The notes beneath the pieces are model-generated. The model did not search any database, was not told the origin of the DNA, and saw only the letters and a program-made list of their open reading frames with translations. The translations under genes and the position numbers were made by a program. From Hyphomonadaceae bacterium (GTDB lineage: Bacteria; Pseudomonadota; Alphaproteobacteria; Caulobacterales; Aquidulcibacteraceae): 32,000 nucleotides of DNA. The DNA lies in NCBI GenBank assembly GCA_016791425.1, contig JAEUMQ010000001.1, positions 33,138 through 65,137 of the forward strand, read 5' to 3'. How positions within the stretch are numbered: position 1 is the stretch's first letter; each line of letters starts with the position of its first letter. Below, piece by piece: positions 5,239 through 31,357 of the stretch.

Positions 5239-5672
5239 GGCGCTCCGCCCTTCCATTCGCCGCGCGCCTTCAGCGCCTCGGCGACTTCGCGCGGCATGTA
5301 GGTCTCGTCGTGCTTGGCGAGCAGCGTGTCCGCTGCGAAGCGCGCGCCGGGCGCATAGCGCCCTTCCGCGACGATGCCCTGCCCCTCGCGGAAGAGATCC
5401 GGCGGCTGCCCGTCATAGCTCACGGGAATGTCATTGGCGCCGTCGGTCACGGTGAAGAGGAGATGCCCCGCGCCGTCGCGCGACACGCTGCCGGCCGCCA
5501 CCAGTCCGCCGATGCGCACGCGCTCTCCGGCCTTGGCCTTCTGCGCCAGCTCGGATGGCGCGTAGAAATAGACCACCGAGTCCCTGAGCGCGAAGAGGAT
5601 GAGCGTCGCAGCGAGCGCCACAAGCGCGCCCGCGACGAGAATGAATATGAGGCGTGCGTCGCGCTTCCTCAT
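5235..5672 (-). CDS. ccmE: heme chaperone CcmE (CycJ)
   Basis: It has an N-terminal TM anchor, an OB-fold-like body (RIGGLVAAGSV...F.VTD) and the C-terminal heme-binding HxxxY motif (LAKHDETYMP). There is an ATGA overlap with the ccmI stop. Confidence 0.93.
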   Translation of the reverse strand: MRKRDARLIFILVAGALVALAATLILFALRDSVVYFYAPSELAQKAKAGERVRIGGLVAAGSVSRDGAGHLLFTVTDGANDIPVSYDGQPPDLFREGQGIVAEGRYAPGARFAADTLLAKHDETYMPREVAEALKARGEWKGGAP

Positions 5673-8524: not shown

Positions 8525-8577
8525 GCGCGCTCCCTGCTGCGACTCATACGTAGGCGCTGCGGCCGGGTAAGGCCAGT

Positions 8578-8913
8578 TCAGCCCACCCGGCCCATCACGC
8601 GACCCGATTGCGCATCGACGCGGATGTCCTCCACCACGCCGTCGGCGCCGCGCCAGCGCAGCACGTAGAAGGGGCGCGCCCCGCCGTCCTCGAGCACGAG
8701 CACGTCGAGCAATTGCCCGCCGCGCTGCGAGCGCACGATCTCGGCGACCTCGCGGACGGAAAGGATGCGCGCGCGCTGCGACTGGCCGCGGCCCGCGTCC
8801 TGGGGCTGCATCCAGTTCTGGAAGCTCTGCGCATGCGCGGACCCGCCCATCGCGGAGAGCCCGAGGCTCATCGCGATCGCGGCCGCTGCAAGGAGGGTTC
8901 GCCCGAACATCAT
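8578..8913 (-). CDS. small secreted PepSY-like protein (FeuN-like position upstream of the regulator/kinase pair)
   Basis: From ATG 8913 there is a Sec signal, MMFGRTLLAAAAIAMSLGLSAMGGSAHA/Q, then a PepSY-like core (ILSVREVAEIVRSQRGGQLLDVLVLEDGGARPFYVLRWRGADGVVEDIRVDAQSGRV). The alternative ATG at 8961 would add a 16-aa Arg-rich extension, so the start is uncertain. Confidence 0.6.
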   Translation of the reverse strand: MMFGRTLLAAAAIAMSLGLSAMGGSAHAQSFQNWMQPQDAGRGQSQRARILSVREVAEIVRSQRGGQLLDVLVLEDGGARPFYVLRWRGADGVVEDIRVDAQSGRVMGRVG

Positions 8914-14372: not shown

Positions 14373-14797
14373 GAAGCGGCTCCCGGAAACGAAAAGCTGG
14401 CCGCCGCGCGTGCGCGCCACCATGGCGCGAAGCGGCTCTGCAGCACCGCGCGCCCCCAATAGGCGTGGATGAGCTTCTCCTCGACGTCGAGGATCGCGGC
14501 GTGCTTGGCCGGAGACGTCGGATGCATCCGAAAGAGGATCACGTCGCCCGGCTGCGGCGCGTTGGTAAGGATCATGTGCCGGCGCGCCGCCTCGTAGAGC
14601 GTCTCTTCGCCGCGCGCTTCGGCCCAATCAGGCGTGTACGGAGGAACATCCTCCGGCTCCGCGCCGTAGAGCGCGCGCCACACGCCCCGGACAAGCCCGA
14701 GGCAATCGCACCCGGCCTGCTTGACGCTCGCCTGGTGACGATAAGGCGTGCCGAGCCAGGAACGCGCCTCCGCCAGGATCGCGCTTCTTGCGATCAT
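14360..14797 (-). CDS. GTA g14 homolog: NlpC/P60-family cell-wall peptidase
   Basis: ARSWLGTPYRHQASVKQAGCDCLGLVRGVW carries the catalytic Cys context, and ...GDVILFRM...AKHAAIL...LIHAY carries the His context. There is an ATGA overlap with the g13 stop. Confidence 0.88.
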   Translation of the reverse strand: MIARSAILAEARSWLGTPYRHQASVKQAGCDCLGLVRGVWRALYGAEPEDVPPYTPDWAEARGEETLYEAARRHMILTNAPQPGDVILFRMHPTSPAKHAAILDVEEKLIHAYWGRAVLQSRFAPWWRARAAASFSFPGAASWPS

Positions 14798-15663
14798 GCG
14801 CGCGATCCCCCGTCATTGTCGCCGCCGGGCTCCGGCCCCGCCTGCAGCGCGTCATTTCCCGGCATGTGCGGAAAGCCGCGGAAATTGACCGCGTTCGCGA
14901 ACTTCGCGCGGCACGTCTCGATGCGCTTGTCGCAACCTGCGTAGATGACGAACGCCGCGCCCGCCTCCAGCGTGCGCGCATCGACCAGTTCGATCGTTGC
15001 GCTCAATGCGCTTTGCCTGTGCACGCTGACTTCGCTCACGCCGCCGGCCGCCCAGACGATGCGCCCGTCGCTGAACCAGCCGTCCGCGAAGGCGCCGAGC
15101 CCGCTCGCGACGAATCCGTTTCCGGAGAGCACGTCGGCGATCTCGCCCTCGCCGCGAAACGCCGCCGTCTCCAGATCCATCCCGCAGCGCGCGTCGCCGA
15201 GGTCAGCGTCGCAGAACCGCGCGAAGACCCGCCCTACCGGCTTGTTGAGCTGCGCCTGCAGCCCGCGCAGCTCCGCTTCGAACGCGCGTGCGCCGCGCCG
15301 GACCTCGCCAAGCCGCCCCGCGAAGAGATGCGCCTTCAGGTCCGGATCGGTCCAATCGACGCGCCAGATATCCACGCGCGCGCCGTCCCAAAGTCCGTTC
15401 GCCAGATCGTCCGCACCGATCGCGTCGGAGGAAAGCGCGCCTGCCGCGCTCGCCGCATCGACGCCGAGCCCGAGCGATTTCTCGATCACGCCTGGCGCGA
15501 ACCCAGACGCCGGCTCGTAGTCGACGCCCTCGATCGAGAGCGTGCGATCGTGATCGGTGAAGCCGAACACCGCCTCGTCGCGCCGCGTCAGCTTCCAGAT
15601 CGTGGCGAGGCTCGTGACGCCCGTCGCGATGCGCGCGGCGAGCTCTTCGGGAATGTCCCGCAT
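14794..15663 (-). CDS. GTA g13 homolog: DUF2163/BR0599-type (TIGR02218-like) tail hub protein
   Basis: Signature-like segments are LATIWKLTRRDEAVFGFTDHDRTLSIEGVDYEPASGF and the C-terminal CDKRIETCRAKFANAVNFRGFPHMPG. The position between g12 and g14 fits. Confidence 0.85.
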   Translation of the reverse strand: MRDIPEELAARIATGVTSLATIWKLTRRDEAVFGFTDHDRTLSIEGVDYEPASGFAPGVIEKSLGLGVDAASAAGALSSDAIGADDLANGLWDGARVDIWRVDWTDPDLKAHLFAGRLGEVRRGARAFEAELRGLQAQLNKPVGRVFARFCDADLGDARCGMDLETAAFRGEGEIADVLSGNGFVASGLGAFADGWFSDGRIVWAAGGVSEVSVHRQSALSATIELVDARTLEAGAAFVIYAGCDKRIETCRAKFANAVNFRGFPHMPGNDALQAGPEPGGDNDGGSRA

Positions 15664-16277
15664 CAGGGCGTGATCTCGATCAGGGGCACGGAAAGCGGCC
15701 GCCCGGCGCCGAACGCGTCGAGGCTGATGTCGAGCCGGTCGGAATCGAACCGCACCGGCGTATCGAATAGAAAGCCGGCGGTGACGGTGGCGCCGGGCGC
15801 CGCGACATCGAGCGTCACCCGTCCAGTCGTGACGTCCACGATGAACGCCTCCGCGCTCAATTCATCGCCGTCCACCGCCACCAGCACCGTTCCGCTGACA
15901 GGCTTATGGATCGTCCGGGCGACCGCGCCGTACGTCTTCTGTAGCTGCACCACGGCGCCGCTTGTGCCGATCATCTCGCAGACTTGGTCCAGCGCGCTCG
16001 GCGTTTCCGAAGGCGCGCACGATTTCCAATCGAGAAAATCCCGAAACCGGAACCCGTGCAGTCGCCCGCGCCTGGCCTCGAAGAACGAGACGAGCGCGTG
16101 CAACTCATCGAGCGAACGCACCGCCCCGCCGATATCGAACCGGCGTCGCCCCTGCGCCCATGGCGAGTTGCGCGCCTCGCGCCCGCTGCCGAGCGTGACG
16201 ATCTCGGTGCGCCGCTCCGGCCCGCCATTGGCGCCAAGCGCCAGCGGCAGAGGAAGCAAAACCTCATGAAAGCTCAC
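15663..16277 (-). CDS. GTA g12 homolog: DUF2460/TIGR02217-like distal tail protein
   Basis: (V)SFHEVLLPLPLALGANGGPERRTEIVTLGSGREARNSPWAQGRRRFDIG is the characteristic N-terminus. The GTG start at 16277 overlaps the g11 stop (GTGA), and the g12 stop overlaps the g13 ATG by 1 nt. Confidence 0.85.
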   Translation of the reverse strand: MSFHEVLLPLPLALGANGGPERRTEIVTLGSGREARNSPWAQGRRRFDIGGAVRSLDELHALVSFFEARRGRLHGFRFRDFLDWKSCAPSETPSALDQVCEMIGTSGAVVQLQKTYGAVARTIHKPVSGTVLVAVDGDELSAEAFIVDVTTGRVTLDVAAPGATVTAGFLFDTPVRFDSDRLDISLDAFGAGRPLSVPLIEITP

Positions 16278-16801
16278 AGATTGCGCCTTCCGTAGGAAAC
16301 CGCGCGCGCGATCTGCGCAGCGATCTGGCCTTGATGCCGGACGAGGCTCTGCGCATCGGCGCCCGGCCCAAGATGGAAATGCACTTCCACCGGCGCCGCC
16401 ACGCCCGCACTCACATTGCCAGCCTGCGCCGGCGTGAAGATCTCAGGTCCGCGCTCTCCGACGAGATAGGCGCCGCCGGGAGTGACGGCCCCGCCCGCGG
16501 CGCGCGCGCCGAAGAACGGCAAGGCTAGTCCCGACGGCTTGCCGAACGCCTTGTCGAGCGCGACCTTCGCCAACTCTTCGAGGATCGTCTTGGCCAGTCG
16601 CTTCATCGATCCCTCGCCATCGGTCGCCGCGCGCCCGAGCGCGCCCGCGATCCGCTTCGCCGCGCGCTCGAACGTGCTCGAAATGTCATCGCCCGCCTTG
16701 GCGCACGGACCTTCGACGAACGCCTTCAGCGCGCTCTGCGCTTCGGTCAGCTCCCCGGTGAAAGCCGCAAGATCGAAAGGTTTGGAGAGATCGTCATTCA
16801 T
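16274..16801 (-). CDS. GTA g11 homolog: short tail tape-measure protein (175 aa)
   Basis: A helical N-terminal part is followed by the conserved C-terminal PFFGARAAGGAVTPGGAYLVGERGPEIFTPAQAGNV motif seen in GTA/phage tape-measure C-termini. It is positioned after the chaperone pair. Confidence 0.8.
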   Translation of the reverse strand: MNDDLSKPFDLAAFTGELTEAQSALKAFVEGPCAKAGDDISSTFERAAKRIAGALGRAATDGEGSMKRLAKTILEELAKVALDKAFGKPSGLALPFFGARAAGGAVTPGGAYLVGERGPEIFTPAQAGNVSAGVAAPVEVHFHLGPGADAQSLVRHQGQIAAQIARAVSYGRRNL

Positions 16802-16968
16802 GTTCGTGCATCGGGATAGGCCCGCATCAATGCTTCAAGGTCCGTGCGCGACAGCGGCGCCGGCGCCCGCGTCAGCGCGCGCCATTCCCTCACGCTGAGC
16901 CGCCAGAACGCTTCCGGCGCGAGCCCAAGCGAAAGCGCCAGCGCCAGCCACGCCCGCCACGGGATCAT
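16798..16968 (-). CDS. GTA g10.1 homolog: small tail-assembly protein, 56 aa (absent from the supplied ORF track because it is under 60 aa)
   Basis: My own translation is MIPWRAWLALALSLGLAPEAFWRLSVREWRALTRAPAPLSRTDLEALMRAYPDART*. The ATG is at 16968, 10 nt after the g10 stop, and its TGA overlaps the g11 ATG (ATGA at 16801-16798). It has high GC3 and the expected position between g10 and g11. Confidence 0.75.
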   Translation of the reverse strand: MIPWRAWLALALSLGLAPEAFWRLSVREWRALTRAPAPLSRTDLEALMRAYPDART

Positions 16969-16978
16969 CTTCGCCCAA

Positions 16979-17269
16979 TCATTCCTCGAACGCCACGCGG
17001 AACGCCGCCGCGACCGCGCTCGCCGCTTCGCGCGGATCGATCCTCGCCGCCGCGAGCTCCGCTCCCGGCCTGCCCGTCAGCGCCGCCAGGATCGTGATGA
17101 GATCCGACGCGGAGAGATGCGCCAGCCGCTCCCCGAGCGCGGCGAAGCCGTCAGTGTCGAACGCCGCCTCAAGCTCCGCGAGCGCGCCGAGCGTCAGGCA
17201 AAGCCGGACCGGCGCGCCGTCGATCGCGAGCACGACCTCGCCGCGCGCGCGATTGCGAAGCGCGCTCAT
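16979..17269 (-). CDS. GTA g10 homolog: gene-transfer-agent family protein / tail assembly chaperone
   Basis: MSALRNRARGEVVLAIDGAPVRLCLTLGALAELEAAF...LSASDLITILAALTG is typical of the small GTA g10 family. There is an ATGA overlap with the g9 stop. Confidence 0.82.
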   Translation of the reverse strand: MSALRNRARGEVVLAIDGAPVRLCLTLGALAELEAAFDTDGFAALGERLAHLSASDLITILAALTGRPGAELAAARIDPREAASAVAAAFRVAFEE

Positions 17270-17685
17270 GCGGCGGTGAAGCTGATCGCGCCCGCCGACG
17301 CGAGCGTCACCGCGAACGCCGCCTCGCCGTCATGATCGCCGGTATAGTCCAGCGCCTCGATCAGGAACGCGCCCGTCAGCGTCCCGAAGCTCGGGATGAT
17401 GAGCTGCCAATTGCCCGCCGTCTGCGCGAAGAAGGCCGCGCGCATCGCCGCGTCCGAGGCAGCGTCCTTGAACACGCCCGCGCCGGTCACGGTCGCGGAC
17501 TTGACGCCGGCGCCGGCGATGAGCTCGCGCCAGGCGTCCGTGCTCTCCGCGCTTGTCGCGTCCACCGAGCGTGCGTTGAGCGAGATGGTCTTGGCGCGCA
17601 AGCCCGCGATCGTGGTGAACGTCTCGCTCGGCGAGCCGCCGTCGCCGATCTTCAAGAGAACGTCGCGTCCCTTCTGTCCAGCCAT
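17266..17685 (-). CDS. GTA g9 homolog: major tail protein (TP901-1-like family)
   Basis: The product is MAGQKGRDVLLKIGDGGSPSETFTTIAGLRAKTISLNARSVDATSAES...WRELIAGAGVKSATVTGAGVFKD... A GAGGAAG Shine-Dalgarno sequence lies 6 nt upstream of the ATG at 17685. Confidence 0.88.
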   Translation of the reverse strand: MAGQKGRDVLLKIGDGGSPSETFTTIAGLRAKTISLNARSVDATSAESTDAWRELIAGAGVKSATVTGAGVFKDAASDAAMRAAFFAQTAGNWQLIIPSFGTLTGAFLIEALDYTGDHDGEAAFAVTLASAGAISFTAA

Positions 17686-17697
17686 GGTGTAGCTTCC

Positions 17698-18105
17698 TCA
17701 GTTCGGTTCTGTAATCGCGCGGAGGCGCAGGATGCCGTGCGTCGTCTGTCCGTCGCCGGCGCGGAACGCATCGGCGAACACCGCGTGCAGCAGCACCAGC
17801 CGATGCCCGCTCAAGCTGAGCGCCTGGTCGTGCAACGCGCCCCGCAGCGCACCCAGCGCCTCGAGCGCTTCCGCCCGCCCGCCATGCCGCGACCACACGT
17901 GCAATGTCACGACATGCTCCAGGGCCGCCTGCGAGGCCGAATCCGCTGGCCGGCTCTGGAAGCCGCCGAACGTGGCGTACGGAAACACCGCATCCGGCGG
18001 ATGATCGTCGTGCATGCGAGCGGGATCCCCGAGAACCGCCTGCACGCCCGCATCGGCCGTGGCCGCCGCGCGGATCGCCGCGCCCAGCGCCCGTTCCGCG
18101 CTCAT
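17698..18105 (-). CDS. GTA g8 homolog: DUF3168-type tail completion protein
   Basis: From ATG 18105 (ATGA overlap with the g7 stop) the product is MSAERALGAAIRAAATADAGVQAVLGDPARMHDDHPPDAVFPYATFGGFQSRPADSAS..., 135 aa. The longer track ORF (to 18201) would overlap g7 by 100 nt. Confidence 0.8.
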   Translation of the reverse strand: MSAERALGAAIRAAATADAGVQAVLGDPARMHDDHPPDAVFPYATFGGFQSRPADSASQAALEHVVTLHVWSRHGGRAEALEALGALRGALHDQALSLSGHRLVLLHAVFADAFRAGDGQTTHGILRLRAITEPN

Positions 18106-18413
18106 AGGCGCTCCTCCACGCAGGCAAGCTCGAGGAGCGCATCCGTCCCCGCGATCACGGCATCGATCCGAAACACGCGCTCGTTCCAAAGCACGCGCCA
18201 ACCCGCGCGCACATCGCTCGGCGCCCGGATCGTCACACGATACGAAGCGTTCGAGAGCGCGCCGTCATATCCAGCGCCCGCGGAGCCCGCACCGGGGCTT
18301 ATCTCCGCCCACACCTCGCCTGCATCGCTCCAGGAGATCTCCGCGCCGCCGAGATCGTCGCTCACGCGCTCCGGCGATTGCAGCGTGATGCGCGCCCGCA
18401 ATTTCTCGATCAT
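18102..18413 (-). CDS. GTA g7 homolog: head-tail adaptor / head closure protein
   Basis: RITLQSPERVSDDLGGAEISWSDAGEVWAEISP...YRVTIRAPSDVRAGWRVLWNERVFRIDAV is the classic phage head-tail adaptor pattern. There is an ATGA overlap with the g6 stop. Confidence 0.88.
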   Translation of the reverse strand: MIEKLRARITLQSPERVSDDLGGAEISWSDAGEVWAEISPGAGSAGAGYDGALSNASYRVTIRAPSDVRAGWRVLWNERVFRIDAVIAGTDALLELACVEERL

Positions 18414-18970
18414 AGCCGCGCCGGCGCGAACGGACGCATCAGCGCCCGCGCCGTCTCCGGCAACGGCCCATCGCCGATGCGCGTGTCATAGAGCGCCGCC
18501 ACGACATGCAGCACCGCCAGCCGCAGCGCGACCGGCAGATCTTCTGCGGCCTCCGCCAGGCCCGCATCGTAATCGATCTCGACCGCGCCGGCGCTTCGCA
18601 GGATCGCCGGCAAGCCGCTCTCGAACACGAGCCGCGGCCGATCGCGTGCGCCATCGAGCCGATAGCGCTCCGGATCGATCACGCTCTCCGTGCCGTTGCG
18701 CGCGACGAGGCGCACCGCGACGACGTTCGTCGCCGGACCGATCGAGAGCAGCGCGCCGCCGACCGCGTCGCGCCGCCAGATGTCGAGGCTCTCGCGCACG
18801 CGCCGCGAGATGAGCGCGCGCCCGCACCCGGTCTCGACCGCTTCGCGCGCCGCCACGATCAAGAGACTGATCAGATCATCCTCCACCGCGTGGTCCACGC
18901 GCAGGAAGAGCTTCGCCTCCGCCAGCGAGACCGGCTCGCTGGCGGGAGGCGTGAGAATACGAACGGACAT
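18410..18970 (-). CDS. GTA g6 homolog: head-tail connector (gp6-like)
   Basis: ILTPPASEPVSLAEAKLFLRVDHAVEDDLISLLIVAAREAVETGCGRALI is the gp6-like connector N-terminus. An AAGGAG Shine-Dalgarno sequence lies 4 nt upstream of the ATG at 18970. Confidence 0.85.
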   Translation of the reverse strand: MSVRILTPPASEPVSLAEAKLFLRVDHAVEDDLISLLIVAAREAVETGCGRALISRRVRESLDIWRRDAVGGALLSIGPATNVVAVRLVARNGTESVIDPERYRLDGARDRPRLVFESGLPAILRSAGAVEIDYDAGLAEAAEDLPVALRLAVLHVVAALYDTRIGDGPLPETARALMRPFAPARL

Positions 18971-18981
18971 GATGCTCCTTT

Positions 18982-19119
18982 CCTCCCCCGTTCACGGGGG
19001 AGGTGTCGCTCGCAGCGCGAGCGACGGAGGGGGCGCAGCAGCGCAAGCGGAACGAACCGTTCACCCGCACGCGCCCCCTCAGTCAGCTTCGCTGACAGCT
19101 CCCCCGCAAGCGGAGGAGC
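18982..19119. repeat. REP-like composite stem-loop element (family 1, copy A) filling the g5/g6 spacer
   Basis: There are five hairpins. H1 is cctccccc/gggggagg (18982-19003, 6-nt loop). H2 is gtcgctcgc/gcgagcgac (19005-19025, 3-nt loop). H3 is the long-range pair gagggggcgc (19027-19036) with gcgccccctc (19071-19080). H4 is gtcagc/gctgac (19082-19096). H5 is the imperfect gctcccccgc/gcggaggagc (19098-19119). The core 18994-19037 matches 28083-28126 at 43 of 44 positions. Confidence 0.8.
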
Positions 19120-19147
19120 AAACCGCCGAGTTCTGCGGCGTTGCGTT

Positions 19148-20350
19148 CTAGCTCGCGGCGAACTTCATCAGCTTCACGGCGTCGAAATGCTGCACGCCGC
19201 CGCCGACGCGCTTGGTCACATAGAAGAGCACGTAGGGCTTCATCGAGTAGGGGTCGCGCAGCACCCGCACGCCTGCCCGATCGACGATGAGGTAGAAGCG
19301 CGCGAAATCGCCGAACGCGATCGAATACGAGTTCGCCGCCACGTCCGGCATCTCCTCCACTTCCGTGATCGGATAGCCGAGGATCGCCGATCCAGCGCCG
19401 CCATCGGTCGGCTGCCAGATATACGCGTCGTTCGCGTCCTTGAGCTTGCGCACCTTCGCCAACGTCTTCCGGTTCATCACGAACCGCGCGTTCTGCCGGA
19501 ATTGCGGCTTCGGCGTGTAGACGAGGTCGATGATCTTATCGACCGGATCGCTCGACGCGAAATCGCCCGACGCGCCGGAAAGCACGAACCCGACTTTCTC
19601 CCACGCATGGCTGCCTTCCGCGACCTTGTCGTAATCAAGGAAGCCGGCCGGCTGGTTCTCGCCCGTACCGGAGACGAACGCCGTGCGCTCCTGCGCGGCG
19701 AACGCCTCCTCCACTTCGCTCGCGATCCATTCCTCGAGATTGACGAACGTGTCGTCGAGCAACGTCTGGGTGGCGGCGAGATTGGCGTAGAGCTCGGCGG
19801 TGGGGAATTCCAGCAGCGACAGCGTCGGCGCCGTCGTCTCGTCGCGGTCGGCGGTCTCCGCCACCCAGCCCGAGCCGGCGGCGGTGATCGACACCGGCTT
19901 CTTGAACACGTTGGCGCCCGTGGTGCGCACCGTCGCGATCGTCCGCATCGGCGACACCGCCTTCAGGCGGTTCTCGATCAGCCGGTCGAGATCCGGCGGC
20001 GCGAAATAGCCGTCCGTGTCGCCCGTCACCGACAGCGCCTTCGCCTCGATCCGCGCGAGCGCGCTTTCATCGCCGCGCCGAAGATAAGCGCCCCAGGCCG
20101 ACTTGCGCTCCGACATCTGCGGATCGGCCGCCAGCGCCGGGCGCCGCCCATTCAAGGCGATGCGCTCGATCATCGCCTTCTGCTCGGCGAGCGCGCGGTC
20201 GATCCGATCGACCTTCTCTTCCAGCAGCACGTCGCCGCGCTTGCCTTCGATCGCCGCGAGCCGCTGGTCGTTCGTCTCCTTGAAGCTCTCGAACGTGCGC
20301 ATGAGCGCTTCGGCCTCCGCTGAAGGCGCGGCCTTGGTTTCCTTTCTCAC
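19148..20350 (-). CDS. GTA g5 homolog: HK97-fold major capsid protein
   Basis: ...AEAEALMRTFESFKETNDQRLAAIE... is a scaffold-like delta region, followed by a typical HK97 capsid body (...LSLLEFPTAELYANLAATQTLLDD..., ...YIWQPT..., ...GYPITEVEEMPD...). The preferred start is the GTG at 20350, preceded by AAAGGAAG. The alternative TTG at 20365 overlaps the g4 stop. Confidence 0.9.
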   Translation of the reverse strand: MRKETKAAPSAEAEALMRTFESFKETNDQRLAAIEGKRGDVLLEEKVDRIDRALAEQKAMIERIALNGRRPALAADPQMSERKSAWGAYLRRGDESALARIEAKALSVTGDTDGYFAPPDLDRLIENRLKAVSPMRTIATVRTTGANVFKKPVSITAAGSGWVAETADRDETTAPTLSLLEFPTAELYANLAATQTLLDDTFVNLEEWIASEVEEAFAAQERTAFVSGTGENQPAGFLDYDKVAEGSHAWEKVGFVLSGASGDFASSDPVDKIIDLVYTPKPQFRQNARFVMNRKTLAKVRKLKDANDAYIWQPTDGGAGSAILGYPITEVEEMPDVAANSYSIAFGDFARFYLIVDRAGVRVLRDPYSMKPYVLFYVTKRVGGGVQHFDAVKLMKFAAS

Positions 20351-20361
20351 GTTGCTTCCTT

Positions 20362-20787
20362 TCAAGCTGCGCGGGCGCTCGCCCGCGTGGTGTTGAGCCG
20401 CGCCAGCGGCTGCATCGGAAGCGCCACGATCGACACTTCCAGAAGCTCAAGTTCGATGAGCAGGCGCCCCCCGCCCTTGATGGGCTCGGACGCATGCGTG
20501 ATGAAGCCGATCGACAGCCCGTCCACGCCGCGCTCGAGCATGCGCCGCGCGCGCCGCGCCGCCGGCGCGTCCGCTTCGATCAGCCCACGGAGGAAAAGCC
20601 CGCGACCGTCCTCGCGCGCCTCGCGCCAGCGTCCGGCGAGCAGCCGCTGCTCATGATGCAGCAGCAGCGGCAGCGGCGCCCGCCGCCGCGCCAGGCTCTC
20701 GCGAAACGCGCCCGCGCGCACGACGTCGCCCACGAGGTCCGCCGCGCCGAACAGCGCCGCGTACCCCTCCACCGCAATCTCCTGCAT
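20362..20787 (-). CDS. GTA g4 homolog: HK97-family prohead protease (141 aa)
   Basis: From ATG 20787 the product is MQEIAVEGYAALFGAADLVGDVVRAGAFRESL...PLLLHHEQ (His context)...VDGLSIGF (Ser context)...ELELLEVSIVALPMQP. The longer track ORF to 21006 overlaps g3.5 and is rejected. Confidence 0.85.
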   Translation of the reverse strand: MQEIAVEGYAALFGAADLVGDVVRAGAFRESLARRRAPLPLLLHHEQRLLAGRWREAREDGRGLFLRGLIEADAPAARRARRMLERGVDGLSIGFITHASEPIKGGGRLLIELELLEVSIVALPMQPLARLNTTRASARAA

Positions 20788-20791
20788 AGGC

Positions 20792-21016
20792 TCAGTCGCG
20801 CTCGAGCCGACGCTCGATCCGCGCGAGGGACGCGCGCGCCTGTCCGAGCTGCTCTTCCAGGCGCACCAGTCGCTCGGCCATCTCGTCCGTCTTCGCGATG
20901 CGCGCCTCGACCGCGTCGAGCCGCGCCGCGGCCTTGCCGGTCCAGATGAATCCGCCCGCCGCCTGCAGCACGACCGCGACCATGAGCGCGAGCGTGATCC
21001 GCGCATCGATCTTCAT
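20792..21016 (-). CDS. GTA g3.5 homolog: small membrane/coiled-coil protein, 74 aa
   Basis: The product is MKIDARITLALMVAVVLQAAGGFIWTGKAAARLDAVEARIAKTDEMAERLVRLEEQLGQARASLARIERRLERD. The ATG at 21016 forms an ATGA overlap with the portal stop. It has one TM helix plus a coiled coil and sits between portal and protease, as in RcGTA. Confidence 0.75.
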   Translation of the reverse strand: MKIDARITLALMVAVVLQAAGGFIWTGKAAARLDAVEARIAKTDEMAERLVRLEEQLGQARASLARIERRLERD

Positions 21017-22167
21017 GGCGTCTCCACGCCCGCCAGGCGCCGCTTCTCCGCGTCCGTGAGGAAGTCCGCGCCCGACAAACGCGACCACAATTCCCCGTTC
21101 TGCGCCTCCCGCTCGCTCGCCAGCGCCGGCACGCTCTCCAGATCCAGGCTCACGCGCGCCGTCTCTCCGCCCCAGCGATCGCCGAGCCACGTCTCGATCG
21201 CCCGCGCCGCCTTCATCGCGAGCGGCAGCGCGGTCTGGCGCCAGAACGCGAGATTGGCTTCGCGATAATTCGAATACGTGTTGTCGCCCGGTATCCCCAG
21301 CAGCATCGGCGGCGCCCCGAACGCCAGCGCGATCTCCCGCGCCGCCGCGTGCCTGGCCTCGATGAAATCCATGTCGGCCGGCGTCAGGCTCATCGGTTTC
21401 CAATCCAGCCCTCCCTCGAGCAGCAGCGGACGCCCTGCGTTCGCGGCGCCCATGTGCGCTTCCTCCAGCTCCGCCTTGAGGCGCTGGAATTGCTCTTCGC
21501 TCAAACGGTCCGCGCCGCCGACGCCGCTGAACACGAGCGCGCCCGAAGGCCGCGCGGCGTTGTCGATCAGCGCCTTGTTCCAGGCCCCGCCCGCATTATG
21601 GATGTCGATCGCGTAGGCGGCCGCCTCCATCGGCGAGAGCCCGAGCCAATCGTCGGTCGGATGGAAGAGCTTGAGGTGCAGGATCGGCGCATGCTCGCTG
21701 ATCGGATCGCGATCGAAGCGCCGCACGACGCTGCCGGCGCGATATTCCCATCCGATCGGCCAGCCATTGCCGCCCGCGATCACCCGCATCCGGTCCGGCC
21801 GCAACACGAAGATCTCGCGCGGCGGTTCATCCTCGAACGCCGACGCCTCGAGGAACGCATTGCCCGACACCTGCAGATGCCCGAAGAACGCCTCCAGCAA
21901 TTCCACGCCCGTCTGCTCCGGGTTCGGGCGCCTCAGAAGCTCCGCTAGCGGATGATCTTCCGGCGTCACCCTGAGCGGCGCGCTCGCCGCCGCTTCCGCG
22001 ATCAGCCGCACGCACCGATACGCCACCGCATTGCGCGCATATCCCTCGCGCGCGAACGCGGTCGGATCGCGGCACGGCCACACCGGCGCGCCGACGCCGA
22101 AAGCCAGGAACTTCCGTTCGACGCGAACCTTCCGGTCCGCGCCGCGCAGCCAATCGAACAGTCTCAT
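21013..22167 (-). CDS. GTA g3 homolog: HK97-family portal protein
   Basis: The 384-aa product has portal-family segments (NAVAYRCVRLIAEAAASAPL..., GNAFLE..., LKLFHPTDDWLGLSPMEAAAYAIDIHNAGGAWNKALIDNAARPSGAL..., MLLGIPGDNTYSNYREANLAFWRQT). It follows TerL. Confidence 0.9.
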   Translation of the reverse strand: MRLFDWLRGADRKVRVERKFLAFGVGAPVWPCRDPTAFAREGYARNAVAYRCVRLIAEAAASAPLRVTPEDHPLAELLRRPNPEQTGVELLEAFFGHLQVSGNAFLEASAFEDEPPREIFVLRPDRMRVIAGGNGWPIGWEYRAGSVVRRFDRDPISEHAPILHLKLFHPTDDWLGLSPMEAAAYAIDIHNAGGAWNKALIDNAARPSGALVFSGVGGADRLSEEQFQRLKAELEEAHMGAANAGRPLLLEGGLDWKPMSLTPADMDFIEARHAAAREIALAFGAPPMLLGIPGDNTYSNYREANLAFWRQTALPLAMKAARAIETWLGDRWGGETARVSLDLESVPALASEREAQNGELWSRLSGADFLTDAEKRRLAGVETP

Positions 22168-22185
22168 GTCGCTTTCCAGAGGGGC

Positions 22186-23499
22186 TCAGAGCGGCCGCAG
22201 GCGCGGCCGCACGTCCTTCACCAGCAATTCCGTGATCGCCCAGACGAGCGCGTCGAGCCGGTCGGGACTGCCGATGAAGCCGGGCGCCCCGAACGAACAC
22301 ATCTCGTCTTCAAGCTCGGCGAACACGCTCGCGTGGCTGACCCGCCCGCGAATGTAGAGCGCCGAAACCGGCAGCGCGCGCTCGTGCTTGCTGACCCGCG
22401 CGTTCACCAGCCGCACGGCCGTGTCGCCGGCGACCAGCTTCAACATTGCGCGCACCAGCTCGCCGCCATTGTTCGCTTCCGCCACGATCGCCTCGGCATT
22501 CAGCGAACGCGCCAGCCTGGCCGCCGCGCTCGCCCATTCCTCCGGGCGCGCGCCTTGCAGGCTGGCGTCGGCCAGAACGATCGCGCGCCGATCCGCTTCC
22601 CCGCCATAGGCGCCCGCCGCGACGATGCCGCACGCGTTCGACGCCTTGCCGATGCTCACCGGCGGATCCACCGCCACCAGGATCCGATCGAGACCGGGCA
22701 GCGAAGGCGCCCGCACGGATTCGATCAGCTCGCGCGTCCAGAGCGCGCCGGCCGGATCCTCGATCAGCGCCCCGGCGAGCTCCTGCCGGTCGTGCACCGA
22801 GCCGGTCCAGCGCGCCCGCAGCGCGGCCAGAAAATCCGGCGCCAGATTGTGCGCATTGGCCCATGTCGAGGCCAGCGTGCGCACGGTGTCGGACGCGCCG
22901 AGCAATCGCTTCAGCGCCGCCAGCGGCCGCGGCGTGGTGGTCAGCGCAAGCTTCGGCGCTTCCCCGAGCCGCAGGCCGTGCAGCAGCGCGCCAAGCGTCG
23001 CCTCCGGCTGCGCCCAGTAGCAGAACTCGTCGCCCCACGCGGCGTCGAATTGCGGTCCGCGCAGGCTTTCTGGATCCTCCGCCGAGAAGAAGTGCGCCTC
23101 CGCGCCGTTCTCCCACACCACGCGCCGCCTGGTCGGCTCGATCGCCGGGCGCTCGCCTGCGCCGGCGCGCAATCCCGCCGGCCCTTCGATCATCACTTCG
23201 CGCGCATCGTTGAACGTCGGCGCAACGAGCGCCACGCGGCCGGCCTGGCCGGCGCGCACGATCCGCTTCACCCATGCCGCGCCGGCTTCGGTCTTGCCCG
23301 CCCCGCGTCCCCCGAGGAACACCCATGTGCGCCACGGTCCCGGCGGCGGCAGCTGCGCATCGTGCGCCCAGAATTCCCAGTCACGGTTGAGGAGCCTGAG
23401 CTCCGCTCCCGTCAGGCTCTCCAAGAAGGTCTTCAGCTCTGTCGGCGCCGATGAAGCGAGCGATGCGACGCTCCAGGTTCGCGCGAAGCTCTTCGTCAT
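22186..23499 (-). CDS. GTA g2 homolog: terminase large subunit (TerL)
   Basis: The N-terminus is ...LESLTGAELRLLNRDWEFWAHDAQLPPPGPWRTWVFLGGRGAGKTEAGAAWV (Walker A GGRGAGKT), and the C-terminal nuclease half includes ILVAVDPPVS... and ...IVAEANNGGELV... The ATG at 23499 is the only canonical start upstream of the conserved N-terminal region. It overlaps g1 out of frame by 119 nt. Confidence 0.9.
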   Translation of the reverse strand: MTKSFARTWSVASLASSAPTELKTFLESLTGAELRLLNRDWEFWAHDAQLPPPGPWRTWVFLGGRGAGKTEAGAAWVKRIVRAGQAGRVALVAPTFNDAREVMIEGPAGLRAGAGERPAIEPTRRRVVWENGAEAHFFSAEDPESLRGPQFDAAWGDEFCYWAQPEATLGALLHGLRLGEAPKLALTTTPRPLAALKRLLGASDTVRTLASTWANAHNLAPDFLAALRARWTGSVHDRQELAGALIEDPAGALWTRELIESVRAPSLPGLDRILVAVDPPVSIGKASNACGIVAAGAYGGEADRRAIVLADASLQGARPEEWASAAARLARSLNAEAIVAEANNGGELVRAMLKLVAGDTAVRLVNARVSKHERALPVSALYIRGRVSHASVFAELEDEMCSFGAPGFIGSPDRLDALVWAITELLVKDVRPRLRPL

Positions 23500-23797: not shown

Positions 23798-23990
23798 CGC
23801 CTGGCTCGGCGCCCTCCGAAGGCCGGGGATAGCGGGGATTTCGCCCTCCCTTTCCGGCCCGAATAAAGCCACAGGGCATAGCCACGAGGCACTCGTACGA
23901 GGCCGCTGATTCAACGGAGAGCCTGGCTTGGTCGAGCCGGAGGGCGCAGGGGAGCAGAAAACCCAGCCGCTTCAAGCGGTTCGCGACCGC

Positions 23991-26027
23991 ATGGCCAAGC
24001 TCCTGGGGCAGCGGAGCCATACCACGCTTGGAGTCGCCGCGATCGTCGGCGGCGTCGCGGCCCTGATCGCGGTGCTGGGCGTCTGGGCCTGGATCTATTG
24101 GGGCCTGCCCTCGGTGCCGGACGGCAAGTCGCTCTGGTCGCTGAACCGGCGTCCCGGCATCACCTTCCTCGACCGCGAAGGCCGCACCCTCGGCGTCCGC
24201 GGCCCCTATTACGGCCGCCGCATCGCGCTTTCCGATCTGCCCGAATACGTGCCCCAGGCCTTCCTCGCCATCGAGGACCGCCGCTTCTACCAGCACCGCG
24301 GCGTCGATCGCGCTGCCGTGCTGCGCGCGTTCTTCGCCAACATGGCCGCCGGGCGCACGGTGCAGGGCGGCTCCACCATCACCCAGCAGCTCGCGCGCAA
24401 CCTCTTCCTCACGCCGAAACAGACCCTGCGCCGAAAAGTGCAGGAGATGGTGCTCGCCTCGCGCATCGAGCAATTGCTCGCCAAGGACGACATCCTCGAG
24501 CTCTACTTGAACCGCGTCTATTTCGGCGACCAGGCCTTCGGCATCGACGCCGCCGCGCGCCGCTTCTTCGGCAAGGCGCCGCAGGATCTCACCGTCGCGG
24601 AAGCCGCGATGCTCGCCGGGCTGCCCAAGGCGCCCTCGCGCACCGCGCCCTCGCAAAGCCTGGAGCGCGCCACCGAGCGCCAGCACCAGGTGCTGCTGGC
24701 GATGGTCGAGGCGCGCTACATCACCGAGGAGCAGAGGCAAGAAGCGCTCAAGACCCGCATCAACGTCGCCCGCTCCACCAGCGAAGGCGCGCTCGGCTAC
24801 GCCTTTGACATGGCGTTCGCCGAAGCCTGCAATCATATCGGCCGCAACCGCGACGCCGCCGACGCCGAGGACCAGATGCTTTGTCCGGCCGAGCCGGGCC
24901 AGCGCAAGCGTTATCCCCCGAACGCCGGCGATCTTGTGATCACGCTCTCGATCAATCGCCAGCTGCAGCAGACCGCCTCGCGTATCGTCTCCGATCATCT
25001 CGGCGCCCGCGCCCGCAACGCCCGCCATCCGCTGCAGGCCGCGATGGTCATGCTCGACCGCGACGGCGCCGTGCGCGTGCTCATCGGCGGCGCCGACTAT
25101 GCGCGCTCGAAATACAACCGCGTCGTCCAGGCCCGCCGCCAGCCCGGCTCCTCGTTCAAGGCCTTCGTTTACGCCGCCGCCATCGAGCGGGGCCTCGACA
25201 CCGAGGAAGTGCGCTACGACGAGCCCGTCGTGATCAATGGCTGGCGCCCGCAGAATTACGACCAGGGCTATCGCGGCGCGGTCACGCTGCGCACGGCCTT
25301 CGCCCAGTCGATCAACACGGTGGCGGCGCAGGTCGTCGATGAGATCGGCCCGCGCGAGGTCGCCGACCTCGCCGAGCGCTTCGGCGTCTCCAGCATGCCC
25401 GCGCGCGGCAAGTTCGTGCCGCCCTCGATCGCGCTCGGCACCATCGAAGTGACGCTCTGGGACATGACCAAGGCGTTCGGGACCTTCATGCTCGAAGGCC
25501 GCCGCGTCGATCCCTATCTCGTCGAGCGCATCGAGACCTCGAGCGGCGAGGCGCTCTATGCGCGCGCCGAGCAGCGTCCGCGCATCGTCTATGAGCCCGA
25601 GCTCGCGCACCGCATGACGAGCATGCTGGGCGCGGTCGTGCTCAACGGCACCGGCGTGCGCGCCCAGCTCTCCAACCGCGACGCCGCCGGCAAGACCGGC
25701 ACCAGCCAGGATTGGCGCGACGCCTGGTTCATCGGCTACACGGCCGATTACGTCGCCGGCGTCTGGGTCGGCCTCGACGCGGATGAATCCATGCTGCGTC
25801 CGTTCGGCCGTATCACCGGCGGCGCCACCCCCGCCGAGATCTGGCACGACGTGATGACGGTCGCGCATCGCGGCACGCCGGTGCGCCGCCTCGTCGGCAT
25901 CGAGCAGCCGGACCGGACGCCCGAGCAGCTGGAGCTCGCCACCTTCTATGACTCGCTCAAGAAGGCCTTCAGCGACATTCAGCAGGAATTCCGCGACGAG
26001 CCGCCGCCGGACGATTTCTTCCGCTGA
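23991..26027 (+). CDS. class A (bifunctional) penicillin-binding protein, PBP1A family: GT51 transglycosylase + transpeptidase
   Basis: The GT51 motifs are EDRRFYQHRGVD, GGSTITQQLARNLF, RKVQEMVLASRIE and ILELYLNRVYFG. The transpeptidase motifs are PGSSFKAF (SxxK), SIN (SxN) and KTGTS. An N-terminal TM anchor follows the ATG at 23991, and the track start TTG at 23928 is possible. Confidence 0.92.
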   Translation: MAKLLGQRSHTTLGVAAIVGGVAALIAVLGVWAWIYWGLPSVPDGKSLWSLNRRPGITFLDREGRTLGVRGPYYGRRIALSDLPEYVPQAFLAIEDRRFYQHRGVDRAAVLRAFFANMAAGRTVQGGSTITQQLARNLFLTPKQTLRRKVQEMVLASRIEQLLAKDDILELYLNRVYFGDQAFGIDAAARRFFGKAPQDLTVAEAAMLAGLPKAPSRTAPSQSLERATERQHQVLLAMVEARYITEEQRQEALKTRINVARSTSEGALGYAFDMAFAEACNHIGRNRDAADAEDQMLCPAEPGQRKRYPPNAGDLVITLSINRQLQQTASRIVSDHLGARARNARHPLQAAMVMLDRDGAVRVLIGGADYARSKYNRVVQARRQPGSSFKAFVYAAAIERGLDTEEVRYDEPVVINGWRPQNYDQGYRGAVTLRTAFAQSINTVAAQVVDEIGPREVADLAERFGVSSMPARGKFVPPSIALGTIEVTLWDMTKAFGTFMLEGRRVDPYLVERIETSSGEALYARAEQRPRIVYEPELAHRMTSMLGAVVLNGTGVRAQLSNRDAAGKTGTSQDWRDAWFIGYTADYVAGVWVGLDADESMLRPFGRITGGATPAEIWHDVMTVAHRGTPVRRLVGIEQPDRTPEQLELATFYDSLKKAFSDIQQEFRDEPPPDDFFR

Positions 26028-28266: not shown

Positions 28267-29823
<1,557 letters not shown>

Positions 29824-29870
29824 GGCCGGCTGATGTGGCAAGCCCGCGCGCCCCCGTCCAGGCGCGACAG

Positions 29871-29909
29871 GCCCAAAGACCAGCCCAGAGACCAGCCCAG
29901 AGACCAGCC
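29871..29909. repeat. 12-bp tandem repeat x3 (gcccaaagacca gcccagagacca gcccagagacca gcc) in the prfC / TIR-gene divergent spacer
   Basis: This was read directly from the sequence. The units are 29871-29882, 29883-29894 and 29895-29906, plus a partial fourth. There is one A/G difference in the first unit. Confidence 0.85.
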
Positions 29910-29971
29910 TTGCAAACCCGGAAGTTCGCCGCCGCCCCTGCCTCTGCTAAAGGGGCGAATCTGGAGGCCTG

Positions 29972-31357
29972 ATGCCGGACGCCTACGTTTCCTTCGCGCG
30001 CGAGGACCGCGACCGGGTGGAGCCCGTCGTCCGGGCCCTGGAAGCGCGCGGCTTCGACGTCTGGTGGAAGCCGGAAATCCCGCCCGACGCGCCCGCCGCC
30101 GCCGCCGCGCTGAGGGATTCCAAGGCTGTGCTCGCCGCCTGGTCCCCCGCCGCCGCCCGCACCGAGGCCGTGGCCGCCGAGCTTGAGGCCGGCCGGGGCC
30201 GCCTCCTGCCCTTCCTGATCGAGGCGCTGCCCGTGGAGCCGCACGCGGCCTTCGCAGCAGCGCCGGTCGATCTCGCCCAATGGCCCGACGCCGCCGCCGC
30301 GCCCGATTTCGAGCGGCTGGTCCAGGCGCTCGCCGCCCGCCGCGGCCGCCCCGCCACGGCCATCACCACCCGTTCCGGCGCCGGGCGCTTCCAACCCGCC
30401 ATCCTGCTCGCCGCGGCCTTGTCGGTGGTCGCGGTCGCCGTTCTGCTGGTGAGCAATCTCGTCCGCCCGCCGGACTTCCTCGCCCCCGCGCCGGGCGCGC
30501 CGGAATATGCCGAGACCGAAGGTGAGGCCACCGACAGCCCCGGCGCCGCCGAGCGCTACGGCCTCGCCAAGCTGGAGATCGATGCGCTGCCGCCGCAGGA
30601 GCTGATCGAGCTCGCCATGCAGCGCACGTCGATCGAAGCGATCGAAGCGGAAGCCGCCGCCGGCGACGCCTTCGGCCTCACCTTGCTCTGTCTCGCGCGC
30701 TCTTTCGGCGAAGGCCTCGACCGCGACCAGCAGGCCGCGCGCCGCGCCTGCGAACAGGGCTCGGCTGCGGGCGATGCGCTCGCCACGTTCATGCTTAGCA
30801 ATTTCGCCCGCGCCGGCGCCGAGGGCTATGCGCCCAATGCCGGCGACATCGCCGAGGCCGACCGCCTGCTTGCCCAGGCCGCCGCAGCCGGAGACGCGCG
30901 CGCCGAAACCGAGCTCGGGCGCAAACATCTGCTCACGGATCAATCCGCCGAAGCCGCGCCCCTCGTCCGCAGCGCCGCCGACAAGGGCTATCTTCCCGCG
31001 CAGGTCTTCCTGGGCTGGATGTTCGAGCAGGGCCGCGGCGTCGAGAAGGACTACCAGCGCGCGATGGCCTGGTATGCGCGCGCCGGCCGCTCCGGCTCTC
31101 CCGCCGGCATGCGTGCGCTCGGCGCCCTCTACGAGCAGGGCCTCGGCGTGGCGCGCGATTACGGCCGCGCGCGCGAGCAATATCAAGGCGCCTCCAATCG
31201 CGGCGACGGCGAAGCGTCCTGGCGCCTCGGGCGCATGTTCGAGCGCGGTCTTGGCGGCGCGCGCGACATGGCCCGCGCCCGCGAGCTCTATTCGATGGCG
31301 CTTGCACAGGGCTACCAGCCGGCCCAGGCCGACGTTCTCCGCGTCGGCCGCGGCTAA
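29972..31357 (+). CDS. TIR domain - single TM - Sel1-like repeat (SLR) protein, 461 aa
   Basis: A GGAGG lies 6 nt upstream of the ATG. The N-terminal ~125 aa follow the bacterial TIR_2 pattern: DAYVSFAREDRDRV (betaA), GFDVWWK (betaB), KAVLAAWSPAA (betaC), an alphaC with E65/E70 (TEAVAAELEA), and RLLPFLIEALP (betaD). The TM helix is AILLAAALSVVAVAVLLVSNLV (aa ~142-164) with Arg-rich residues on its N-side. The C-terminal half has at least 5 Sel1 repeats (e.g. AADKGYLPAQVFLGWMFEQGRGVEKDYQRAMAWYARAG, GSPAGMRALGALYEQGLGVARDYGRAREQYQGAS, GDGEASWRLGRMFERGLGGARDMARARELYSMA). Confidence 0.8.
   Translation: MPDAYVSFAREDRDRVEPVVRALEARGFDVWWKPEIPPDAPAAAAALRDSKAVLAAWSPAAARTEAVAAELEAGRGRLLPFLIEALPVEPHAAFAAAPVDLAQWPDAAAAPDFERLVQALAARRGRPATAITTRSGAGRFQPAILLAAALSVVAVAVLLVSNLVRPPDFLAPAPGAPEYAETEGEATDSPGAAERYGLAKLEIDALPPQELIELAMQRTSIEAIEAEAAAGDAFGLTLLCLARSFGEGLDRDQQAARRACEQGSAAGDALATFMLSNFARAGAEGYAPNAGDIAEADRLLAQAAAAGDARAETELGRKHLLTDQSAEAAPLVRSAADKGYLPAQVFLGWMFEQGRGVEKDYQRAMAWYARAGRSGSPAGMRALGALYEQGLGVARDYGRAREQYQGASNRGDGEASWRLGRMFERGLGGARDMARARELYSMALAQGYQPAQADVLRVGRG

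Follow-up and report, generated by a model that had tools for sequence, protein, structure and literature searches.

In a 32,000-nucleotide stretch of the genome of a Hyphomonadaceae bacterium (contig JAEUMQ010000001.1, positions 33,138 to 65,137; hereafter the window), the gene at positions 29972 to 31357 of the + strand encodes a 461-amino-acid (aa) protein in which an N-terminal TIR domain is joined through a single transmembrane (TM) helix to a C-terminal solenoid of Sel1-like repeats (SLR). We propose that this window protein is a membrane-anchored periplasmic Sel1 adaptor whose TIR is pseudo-enzymatic and serves as a non-catalytic docking or oligomerisation module, a reading to which we give a probability of roughly 0.55. 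The fold of both halves, the predicted topology and the stepwise erosion of the TIR within one lineage of the family argue for it. TIR and Sel1 are known kinds of domains, but their membrane-spanning combination is uncharacterised. The features of the gene are as follows.

29972..31357, + strand: whole gene for the 461-aa bitopic TIR - TM - Sel1-like solenoid protein, stop codon included (open reading frame [ORF] list, GC3, homologs)
29963..29967, + strand: Shine-Dalgarno sequence GGAGG, 4 nt ahead of the ATG, read from the sequence
29972..30346, + strand: TIR-fold domain, aa 1-125, predicted cytoplasmic (Pfam, AlphaFold, Foldseek, family profile)
30179..30181, + strand: codon of Glu70, at the TIR catalytic-Glu position (alignments A3 and A4; profile column)
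30347..30397, + strand: basic juxtamembrane linker RPATAITTRSGAGRFQP, preceded by R123-R124, on the predicted cytoplasmic side (K+R 3, D+E 0)
30398..30466, + strand: single TM helix, aa 143-165 (KD19 maximum 2.83)
30467..30529, + strand: Pro-rich acidic linker, aa 166-186, predicted periplasmic (K+R 0, D+E 5, Pro 5; pLDDT <50)
30530..30661, + strand: conserved membrane-proximal helical cap, aa 187-230 (TDSPGAAERYGL ... IEAIEAEAAA), helices 192-229, pLDDT ~90
30662..31345, + strand: Sel1-like repeat solenoid, aa 231-458, predicted periplasmic, six helical hairpins plus a capping helix
30689..30751, + strand: invariant Cys240 (30689-30691) and Cys260 (30749-30751), in helices A and B of the first hairpin

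Domain architecture and membrane topology

The first 125 residues adopt a TIR fold. Pfam TIR_2 (PF13676) matched aa 5-116 with 46.9 bits (E = 4.7e-12; cut-off 28). Because a full-length Foldseek query was dominated by Sel1 matches, a second, TIR-only AlphaFold model was used, built from a 25-sequence alignment (pLDDT 87.7; pTM 0.82). This model shows a flavodoxin-like beta/alpha fold superposable on solved TIR domains (betaA 4-7, alphaA 10-25, alphaB 41-49, betaC 52-57, alphaC 65-73, betaD 78-82 and alphaE 111-124). Every match listed by Foldseek from the PDB was a TIR domain or a TIR-containing protein, 10 of them at E <= 0.001; the best was AbTir (7uxu), and Hydra TRR-2, TLR15, MAL, MyD88, BtpA/TcpB and PdTIR were also recovered (TM-scores 0.6-0.72). 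A phmmer search of aa 1-143 against the PDB returned chance matches only, since the domain is too divergent for a single-sequence search; the fold search and the family profile resolved this, the N-terminal profile reaching TIR_2 proteins at E values down to 1e-49.

The C-terminal half is an SLR solenoid. Pfam Sel1 (PF08238) scored 61.9 bits against a cut-off of 30.7 (E = 6e-17) in three significant stretches. A full-length AlphaFold model, made from a 6-sequence family alignment, had a mean pLDDT of 81 and was confident in both globular parts, with pLDDT >90 over aa 200-458, where 12 helices form the six hairpins, plus the cap. The result is a right-handed alpha/alpha solenoid matching solved SLR structures: Foldseek returned LceB, LpnE, HcpC, c5321, AlgK and SEL1L from the PDB (E ~1e-10 for the first five), and phmmer matched the Sel1 region to c5321 at E = 4.5e-52. 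In the membrane-proximal helical cap, Y196 is nearly invariant across the family and G197, A215, I224 and A228 are invariant. Cys240 and Cys260 are present in 17/17 family members and are the sole cysteines in 12 of these; the pair probably forms a structural disulfide in the periplasm. The first hairpin aligned to no PDB sequence, and the pair was not matched to the disulfides of Hcp proteins.

A TM helix occurs at the equivalent position in all family members, and no N-terminal signal peptide was found in the window protein. AlphaFold left the TM helix and its linkers unmodelled (pLDDT ~30 over aa 130-190). Among 57 single-TM relatives, the N-side flank of the helix was the more basic in 50 and the less basic in 2, with a mean K+R of 4.1 on the N side versus 1.6 on the other (Wilcoxon p = 6e-10, a generous value given that the sequences are related). 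Two orthologs, L004 (3445-5316) and P0254, carry a four-TM insertion between TIR and Sel1, to which Pfam gave no match. Their total of 5 TMs is odd and their loop charges alternate, so that TIR and Sel1 would remain on opposite sides of the membrane. The domains that follow the TM in sister architectures include PASTA, a characteristically extracytoplasmic module. With its single TM, lack of a signal peptide, positive-inside bias and extracytoplasmic C-terminal features, the window protein is predicted with high confidence to be N-in/C-out, with a cytoplasmic TIR and a periplasmic solenoid.

The first-pass annotation of this DNA had proposed the TIR - single TM - Sel1 order from the letters alone and had named the TIR fold of aa 1-125 as a point to be checked; Pfam, AlphaFold and Foldseek bear out the order, and the fold search confirms the TIR. 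Its assignment of the TIR to the cytoplasm and the solenoid to the periplasm agrees with the charge bias, the five-TM variants and the invariant Cys pair.

The reading frame has coding-type GC at its codon positions, with a GC3 of 0.87, in a window of ~69% GC (~70% in the genomes that carry this gene family). The start M-x-D-x-F/Y is common to 16/16 homologs that share the architecture at full or near-full length. On the opposite strand, a 636-aa ORF (29276..31186, - strand) overlaps prfC as well as the TIR-Sel1 gene. Shadow ORFs of this kind are typical of high-GC DNA, and this one could lead automated gene callers into error. The presence of this long antisense ORF is the one point that could be raised for an annotation artefact, in which the ORF call fuses two genes or the antisense ORF is the true gene. 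Such an artefact has a negligible chance of being right and is already refuted by the GC3 of the + frame, by the single ORF with identical start and stop kept in 16 homologs from independent assemblies and by the profiles and structures that confirm both domains.

Erosion of the TIR within the family

In canonical TIR_2 relatives, the motifs DVF[IV]SY, VWWD..L.PG and [WF]V[RL][DE]EA are essentially invariant, and a profile-to-PDB search aligned the catalytic-Glu column with the Glu of PdTIR (WPQKE) and of RUN1 (RWCLDE, E100). Glu70 of the window protein lies in this invariant column in the deeper alignments A3 and A4, and we place it there on the basis of these alignments and because no indel separates betaC from alphaC. 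The hallmarks around it are largely gone. The Trp position of the WxxxE motif is Ala66 (30167-30169), where most canonical relatives have W or F and a few have A, S or T, and the Arg-Asp pair that precedes the Glu is replaced by Ala68-Ala69. Elsewhere, the Asp at position 33 has become Lys, the BB-loop Gly at position 39 Asp and the Ala at position 71 Leu. The BB-loop signature (WWD ... P-G), invariant in 65 sampled members of the wider class of TIR-TM proteins described below, is therefore lost by the changes of D33 to Lys and G39 to Asp. Overall, at least 3 of 11 class-invariant TIR positions are substituted (D33K, G39D and A74L), in addition to the W/F of WxxxE, while S7, D12, W57, V67 and Glu70 are retained; two of the three sequence features of an NADase-competent TIR are thus missing. 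The first-pass annotation had seen a Glu at the catalytic position without the preceding Trp, and had suggested on this ground that the TIR might not cleave NAD; the first point stands, with the placement of Glu70 depending on the alignment used, and the sequence features support a TIR that is probably non-catalytic.

To delimit the family, an exhaustive hidden Markov model (HMM) search was made over 1.84 billion representatives clustered at 50% identity. Giant Sel1 proteins dominated the search with the full-length profile, and family members were taken as single-stretch full-length matches confirmed by a local TIR HMM. About 10 clusters matched in this way (P0001, P0005, P0114, P0120, P0123, P0149, P0158, P0163, P0205 and P0254), from Hyphomonadaceae, Caulobacterales, Caulobacteraceae and unclassified alphaproteobacterial metagenome-assembled genomes (MAGs). 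A homolog search with the N-terminal profile returned nearly all fragments of <280 aa and was replaced, for questions of architecture, by the representative search and a metagenome scan.

The TIR motifs of these proteins form a graded series. All are kept in the canonical group (P0005/L001, P0120, P0123, P0158, P0205, P0254, L003 and L004), and the four canonical members scanned (P0005, P0120, P0254 and L003) scored 71-84 bits with TIR_2. Two proteins are intermediate: P0149, with Glu changed to Asp and Trp to Thr (51 bits), and the window protein, with Glu70 kept and the other hallmarks lost (47 bits). In the eroded group (P0002, P0003, P0004, P0006, P0114, P0163 and L002), scores fell to 15-24 bits, below the cut-off of 28. 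Eroded members have ~15 aa of the BB-loop/alphaB region deleted and have lost the S-Y of box 1, and in the closest relatives of the window protein the Glu column reads A/N/S/I/A etc.

A neighbor-joining tree of the Sel1 half grouped the window protein with the eroded members (95% bootstrap) and set it near the base of this clade; the split that unites only the eroded members had 36% support. Because this tree was built from the Sel1 half alone, it is independent of the state of the TIR. Between-member identity also changed direction: in the canonical group the TIR is the better conserved half (0.56 versus 0.44 for the SLR), and in the eroded group the order is reversed (TIR 0.50, SLR 0.60). 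Together, the SLR-only tree, the motif series and the reversed domain identity indicate that the TIR eroded step by step, as a derived change restricted to one lineage. The domain has not become free of constraint. The TIR remnant of the eroded clade is folded and constrained (~50% identity), its alphaE helix (FERLVQAL..LRGRP) is nearly invariant, and no ortholog was found in which the TIR was simply deleted.

Genomic setting and the wider TIR-TM class

The gene order prfC (divergent) - TIR-Sel1 gene - DUF1491 (convergent) is shared by the window, the P0004 contigs, L001, L002 and L003. In L004, prfC and the gene are present, and no DUF1491 match was found in its 8.2-kb contig. Farther out than prfC, the P0004 contigs, L002 and L003 carry a DUF2336 gene, and L002 and L003 share with the window a class A penicillin-binding protein (PBP) gene still further upstream. 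Across loci, prfC is 70-74% identical and DUF1491 ~70%, versus only 38-44% for the TIR-Sel1 protein. This contrast and the synteny mark the TIR-Sel1 gene as a solitary, fast-evolving gene of the core chromosome that is inherited vertically, as opposed to a mobile defence gene. A defence-island hypothesis for the family was rejected on the conserved housekeeping order, the solitary gene and the absence of a partner. PADLOC assigned no system to the window protein (only PDC-S66 at E = 0.007 over 30 residues), and NCBIfam gave no equivalog. Canonical orthologs matched defence profiles (SAVED-TIR, pAgo-TIR and ThsB) at the level of the TIR domain only. Several claims of the first-pass annotation can be settled here. 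The gene is indeed solitary, with prfC divergent and DUF1491 convergent, and the view that no characterised family covers the protein holds, with no NCBIfam equivalog, no PADLOC system and no description in the literature searched. The survey of architecture and neighbours that it had called for uncovered a small family at one site, but no defence partners.

Other features of the locus were noted. A 12-bp tandem repeat, GCCCAGAGACCA, occurs 3.2 times at 29871..29909 (no strand assigned), in the spacer that separates the divergent prfC and TIR-Sel1 genes (TRF score 71; 96% matches). It could be a binding or regulatory site or a slippage product, and its relevance is uncertain; it was not present at the orthologous loci L001-L004 and, lacking conservation there, was dropped as a family feature. 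A promoter and terminator scan found no promoter-like site and a single terminator-like hairpin, at chance level. The listed prfC ORF (28267-29841, - strand) starts with TTG; the true start is probably the Met of MSSDPITEA a few codons downstream, which would make the intergenic region ~148 bp rather than 130 bp. An RcGTA-like head-tail cluster occupies positions 10557-23499 of the window (- strand), 6.5 kb upstream of the TIR-Sel1 gene. It encodes the large terminase, portal, capsid, head-tail connector, DUF2460 and baseplate hub (Phage_phiJL001_Gp84_N / BR0599) proteins, as well as a 1356-aa GTA_TIM / Phage-tail_3 / Rcc01698_C protein, and is followed by the class A PBP gene (23928-26027, + strand).

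An N-terminal TIR, a TM segment and an ectodomain define a large, uncharacterised class, to which the window family belongs as one branch. In the closest TIR_2 relatives, a TM at about aa 150 was found in 27 of the 43 proteins that are 165 aa or longer. A metagenome scan with a single N-terminal pattern recovered at least 550 confirmed relatives, and ORFs were counted in the best 80 loci, which contain 66 complete ones; in 46 of these the TIR is followed by one or more TMs, and in 42 by a single TM. The TM lies at about aa 150-200 (L006-L085, for example L042 at 555-1889, L025 at 4001-5287 and L046 at 4001-5410; also L052 at 899-2968 and L073 at 4001-5917). The ectodomains comprise TPR arrays, three PASTA domains with a mannan-binding MVL domain, FGE-sulfatase, TolB_N, PDZ and unknown domains. 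The invariant Glu and the BB-loop residues were kept in 65/65 class members scanned. Most neighbours are housekeeping genes (TerC, RsmD-like, pseudouridine synthase, gyrase and 2-oxoacid dehydrogenase), with scattered defence-profile matches only, and a defence-island setting for the class is mostly unsupported by them.

The class appears unstudied. The literature searched, with subscription journals mostly outside its coverage, held no description of a TIR-TM-Sel1, TIR-TM-TPR, TIR-TM-PASTA or membrane-spanning bacterial TIR protein. A TIR survey by Toshchakov and Neuwald mentions only an N-terminal TIR with C-terminal TPR in an uncharacterised actinobacterial group (PMC7075850). The arrangement stands less alone than the first-pass annotation had suggested: N-TIR/TM/ectodomain proteins are common in metagenomes, and soluble TIR+Sel1 and TIR+TPR fusions exist (PMC11350192).

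Several related architectures were observed alongside. A paralogous TIR-TM class, P0018 (L005 at 7001-8608; L008-L018), comprises proteins of ~520-545 aa with a canonical TIR and a TM in a housekeeping context; an Ala/Pro-rich linker leads to a helical C-terminal domain without a Pfam match, and the motif L-[TP]-P-[EQ]-x-[AL]-I-E-L-A in the first helix after the TM recurs in the window family. The P0018-class gene of L005 is followed, 18 bp downstream, by a convergent gene for a single-domain response regulator. P0234, from a low-GC organism, is soluble and has no TM; its 1239 aa include a canonical TIR_2 at the N-terminus (WVEKE motif) and 17 Sel1 repeats, which indicates that the TIR+Sel1 fusion arose at least twice. 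P0015 and P0016 are FtsZ/tubulin-family proteins (PF00091 and PF12327) of ~695 aa, in which a long low-complexity linker precedes C-terminal Sel1 repeats, an unusual architecture for FtsZ.

Functional readings and comparison with known systems

In the ancestral or canonical form of the protein, ligand binding or clustering of the ectodomain would bring the membrane-tethered TIRs together; to our knowledge, TIR self-association is needed for activity in all characterised systems. In the window protein, the solenoid, best conserved on its membrane-proximal surface (aa 187-315), would bind an envelope protein or a peptidoglycan-related ligand, and the retained, folded TIR would act in the cytoplasm as a non-catalytic self-association or docking module. 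The first-pass annotation had instead stressed the logic of a receptor, and an active transmembrane TIR receptor is the reading to be weighed before others, although we consider it unlikely for the window protein. Here, the periplasmic Sel1 half would sense an envelope cue and cluster the TIRs, and Glu70 would cleave NAD+ or make a signalling nucleotide. The cue might be contact with a phage or gene transfer agent (GTA), a muropeptide or envelope damage, and the outcome might be abortive infection or a stress response, with the logic of a Toll-like receptor in inverted domain order. Glu70 in the catalytic column and a TIR_2 score above the Pfam cut-off fit such a receptor, as do the Glu and BB-loop residues kept in the canonical orthologs and in all 65 sampled class members, the domain-level matches of canonical TIRs to SAVED-TIR, pAgo-TIR and ThsB defence profiles, the classic sensor modules among the class ectodomains (PASTA, FGE-sulfatase and TPR) and the RcGTA-like cluster 6.5 kb away. 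However, the WxxxE aromatic, the R-D pair, D33 and G39 are all missing from the window TIR, and its clade loses the Glu and the BB-loop while the gene persists, indicating that catalysis is not maintained by selection there. PADLOC found no match, the synteny is one of conserved housekeeping genes without a partner gene, and the neighbours of the class are likewise mostly housekeeping. A receptor with NADase output is therefore weakened for the window protein, since its clade erodes the TIR and its closest relatives have lost both the Glu and 15 aa of the BB-loop/alphaB region; what survives of the receptor idea is the architectural analogy, in a core-chromosome rather than a defence-island setting.

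The opposite extreme, in which all function resides in Sel1 and the TIR is a vestigial anchor, is a little less probable again than an active receptor. The protein would then be a periplasmic scaffold, acting, for example, like PodJ, ExoR, MotX or AlgK, which its Sel1 half resembles at the repeat level, to position or regulate an envelope complex or a peptidoglycan enzyme. The SLR is the better-conserved half in the eroded clade (0.60 versus 0.50), invariant residues cluster in aa 187-311, a class A PBP lies in the conserved neighbourhood and TM-preceded Sel1 is peptidoglycan-associating according to Kaur et al. 2020 (PMC7159879). A functionless 125-aa segment, however, would not be expected to remain folded and ~50% identical with a nearly invariant alphaE, and no ortholog has deleted the TIR outright; moreover, the ExoR, MotX, AlgK and MerG models scored only 18-27 bits against cut-offs of 330-700, and, in contrast to PodJ, neither a PG_binding domain nor a coiled coil is present. 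Far less plausible is an inside-out regulator, whose TIR would bind an NAD- or ADPR-like metabolite without cleaving it and relay this state to binding by Sel1. A retained fold with a partial pocket (S7, D12 and E70) and lost catalytic accessories is typical of transitions from enzyme to sensor, but a single TM flanked by long disordered linkers (pLDDT ~30, aa 130-190) would be a poor conduit, and the eroded sisters have lost the BB-loop and the Glu entirely.

Several points weigh against a non-catalytic adaptor. Glu70 is kept and the TIR_2 score exceeds the Pfam cut-off, and residual NADase or nucleotide-binding activity of the window TIR could still be present. The position of Glu70 itself shifts with the alignment, the shallower A1 and A2 displacing it by a 2-residue gap, and the erosion may be partly exaggerated by the Ala/Pro/Arg bias of ~70% GC genomes. 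The family alignment holds 17 sequences, mostly from MAGs; the topology is drawn from hydropathy and charge statistics, and the disulfide from the invariance of the two cysteines.

Taken alone, the window protein would have a modest function, that of an envelope adaptor with a pseudo-enzymatic TIR. The wider interest lies in its class. Membrane-spanning TIR proteins with periplasmic solenoid or sensor domains exist, are abundant in environmental bacteria and lie mostly near housekeeping genes, and they might point to TIR signalling from envelope to cytoplasm that takes place outside classical defence islands. More speculatively, the class might comprise unrecognised bacterial transmembrane TIR receptors with interchangeable periplasmic sensors (Sel1, TPR, PASTA or FGE-sulfatase), in which ligand-driven clustering of the ectodomain switches on TIR self-assembly and NAD+ cleavage in the canonical forms and the window lineage represents a conversion to a pseudo-enzyme. 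If this tentative idea were true, outside-in signalling of a TLR-like kind would be encoded among housekeeping genes and not in defence islands. The ortholog series at one site, from canonical forms to forms without the Glu and the BB-loop, offers a test of which TIR features serve catalysis and which serve as scaffold.

TIR domains play a central part in animal, plant and bacterial immunity, and the characterised bacterial TIR proteins known to us are soluble NADases or secreted effectors. With AbTir, PdTIR, BtpA/TcpB and Thoeris ThsB, the window protein shares the fold, the Pfam TIR_2 match and a Glu at the alphaC position. NADase-type TIRs are soluble proteins in which the WxxxE Trp and the BB-loop persist; the window protein, by contrast, is membrane-anchored by prediction, has Ala66 and lacks D33, G39 and the R-D pair; unlike Thoeris, it has no ThsA-like partner and lies outside any defence locus. 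Neither profiles nor context assigned it to a known anti-phage TIR system (Thoeris, TIR-SAVED/CBASS, Pycsar, SPARTA or TIR-II). The E. coli TIR-II protein likewise combines an N-terminal TIR and alpha-solenoid repeats in one polypeptide, but its defence depends on the active site, and no membrane-spanning form of a TIR with a repeat ectodomain was described with it (PMC11350192). The TM of the window protein would put the solenoid in the periplasm, its repeats are Sel1 rather than TPR, its active site is eroded and its context is housekeeping. The authors of the TIR-II study remark that the TM and repeat-ectodomain features of Toll-like receptors seem absent from bacterial TIR systems (PMC11350192). 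Like metazoan Toll-like receptors, the window protein combines a solenoid ectodomain with a TIR predicted to be cytoplasmic, linked by one TM pass; here, however, the TIR is N-terminal, the solenoid is alpha-helical Sel1 and there are no known adaptors. The Toll-like order of N-terminal leucine-rich repeats (LRR), TM and C-terminal TIR was not found, no LRR being present in the window protein. By analogy, the resemblance is one of layout only and does not imply homology of the whole receptor.

Receptor Ser/Thr kinases (P0011 and P0012) have the same layout, in which an output domain is followed by a TM, a Pro-rich linker and a repeat or sensor ectodomain. The TIR-TM class draws on the same set of ectodomains as such kinases (PASTA, FGE-sulfatase, TPR or Sel1), with a TIR instead of a kinase as output. 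P0011 and P0012 (kinase-TM-Sel1) were rejected as ectodomain orthologs, their similarity being at the level of repeats and spread over multiple offset alignments. On the Sel1 side, PodJ-like proteins (P0022 and P0023) are bitopic N-in/C-out with periplasmic Sel1-like repeats, as predicted for the window protein, and PodJ, ExoR, MotX and AlgK share with it Sel1-like repeats that work in the periplasm. The window protein lacks the PG_binding_1 domain and coiled coil of PodJ-like proteins (cf. P0022) and has a TIR instead, and it fell short of the NCBIfam equivalogs for ExoR, MotX, AlgK and MerG. Kaur et al. 2020 describe TM-preceded Sel1 and PASTA as peptidoglycan-associating modules in other systems (PMC7159879). 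HcpB and HcpC are secreted or periplasmic SLR solenoids, and HcpC (1ouv) matches the window protein in both structure and sequence. Hcp repeats are stabilised by intra-repeat disulfides, whereas the window protein has one Cys pair in a family-specific first hairpin, together with a membrane anchor and a TIR.

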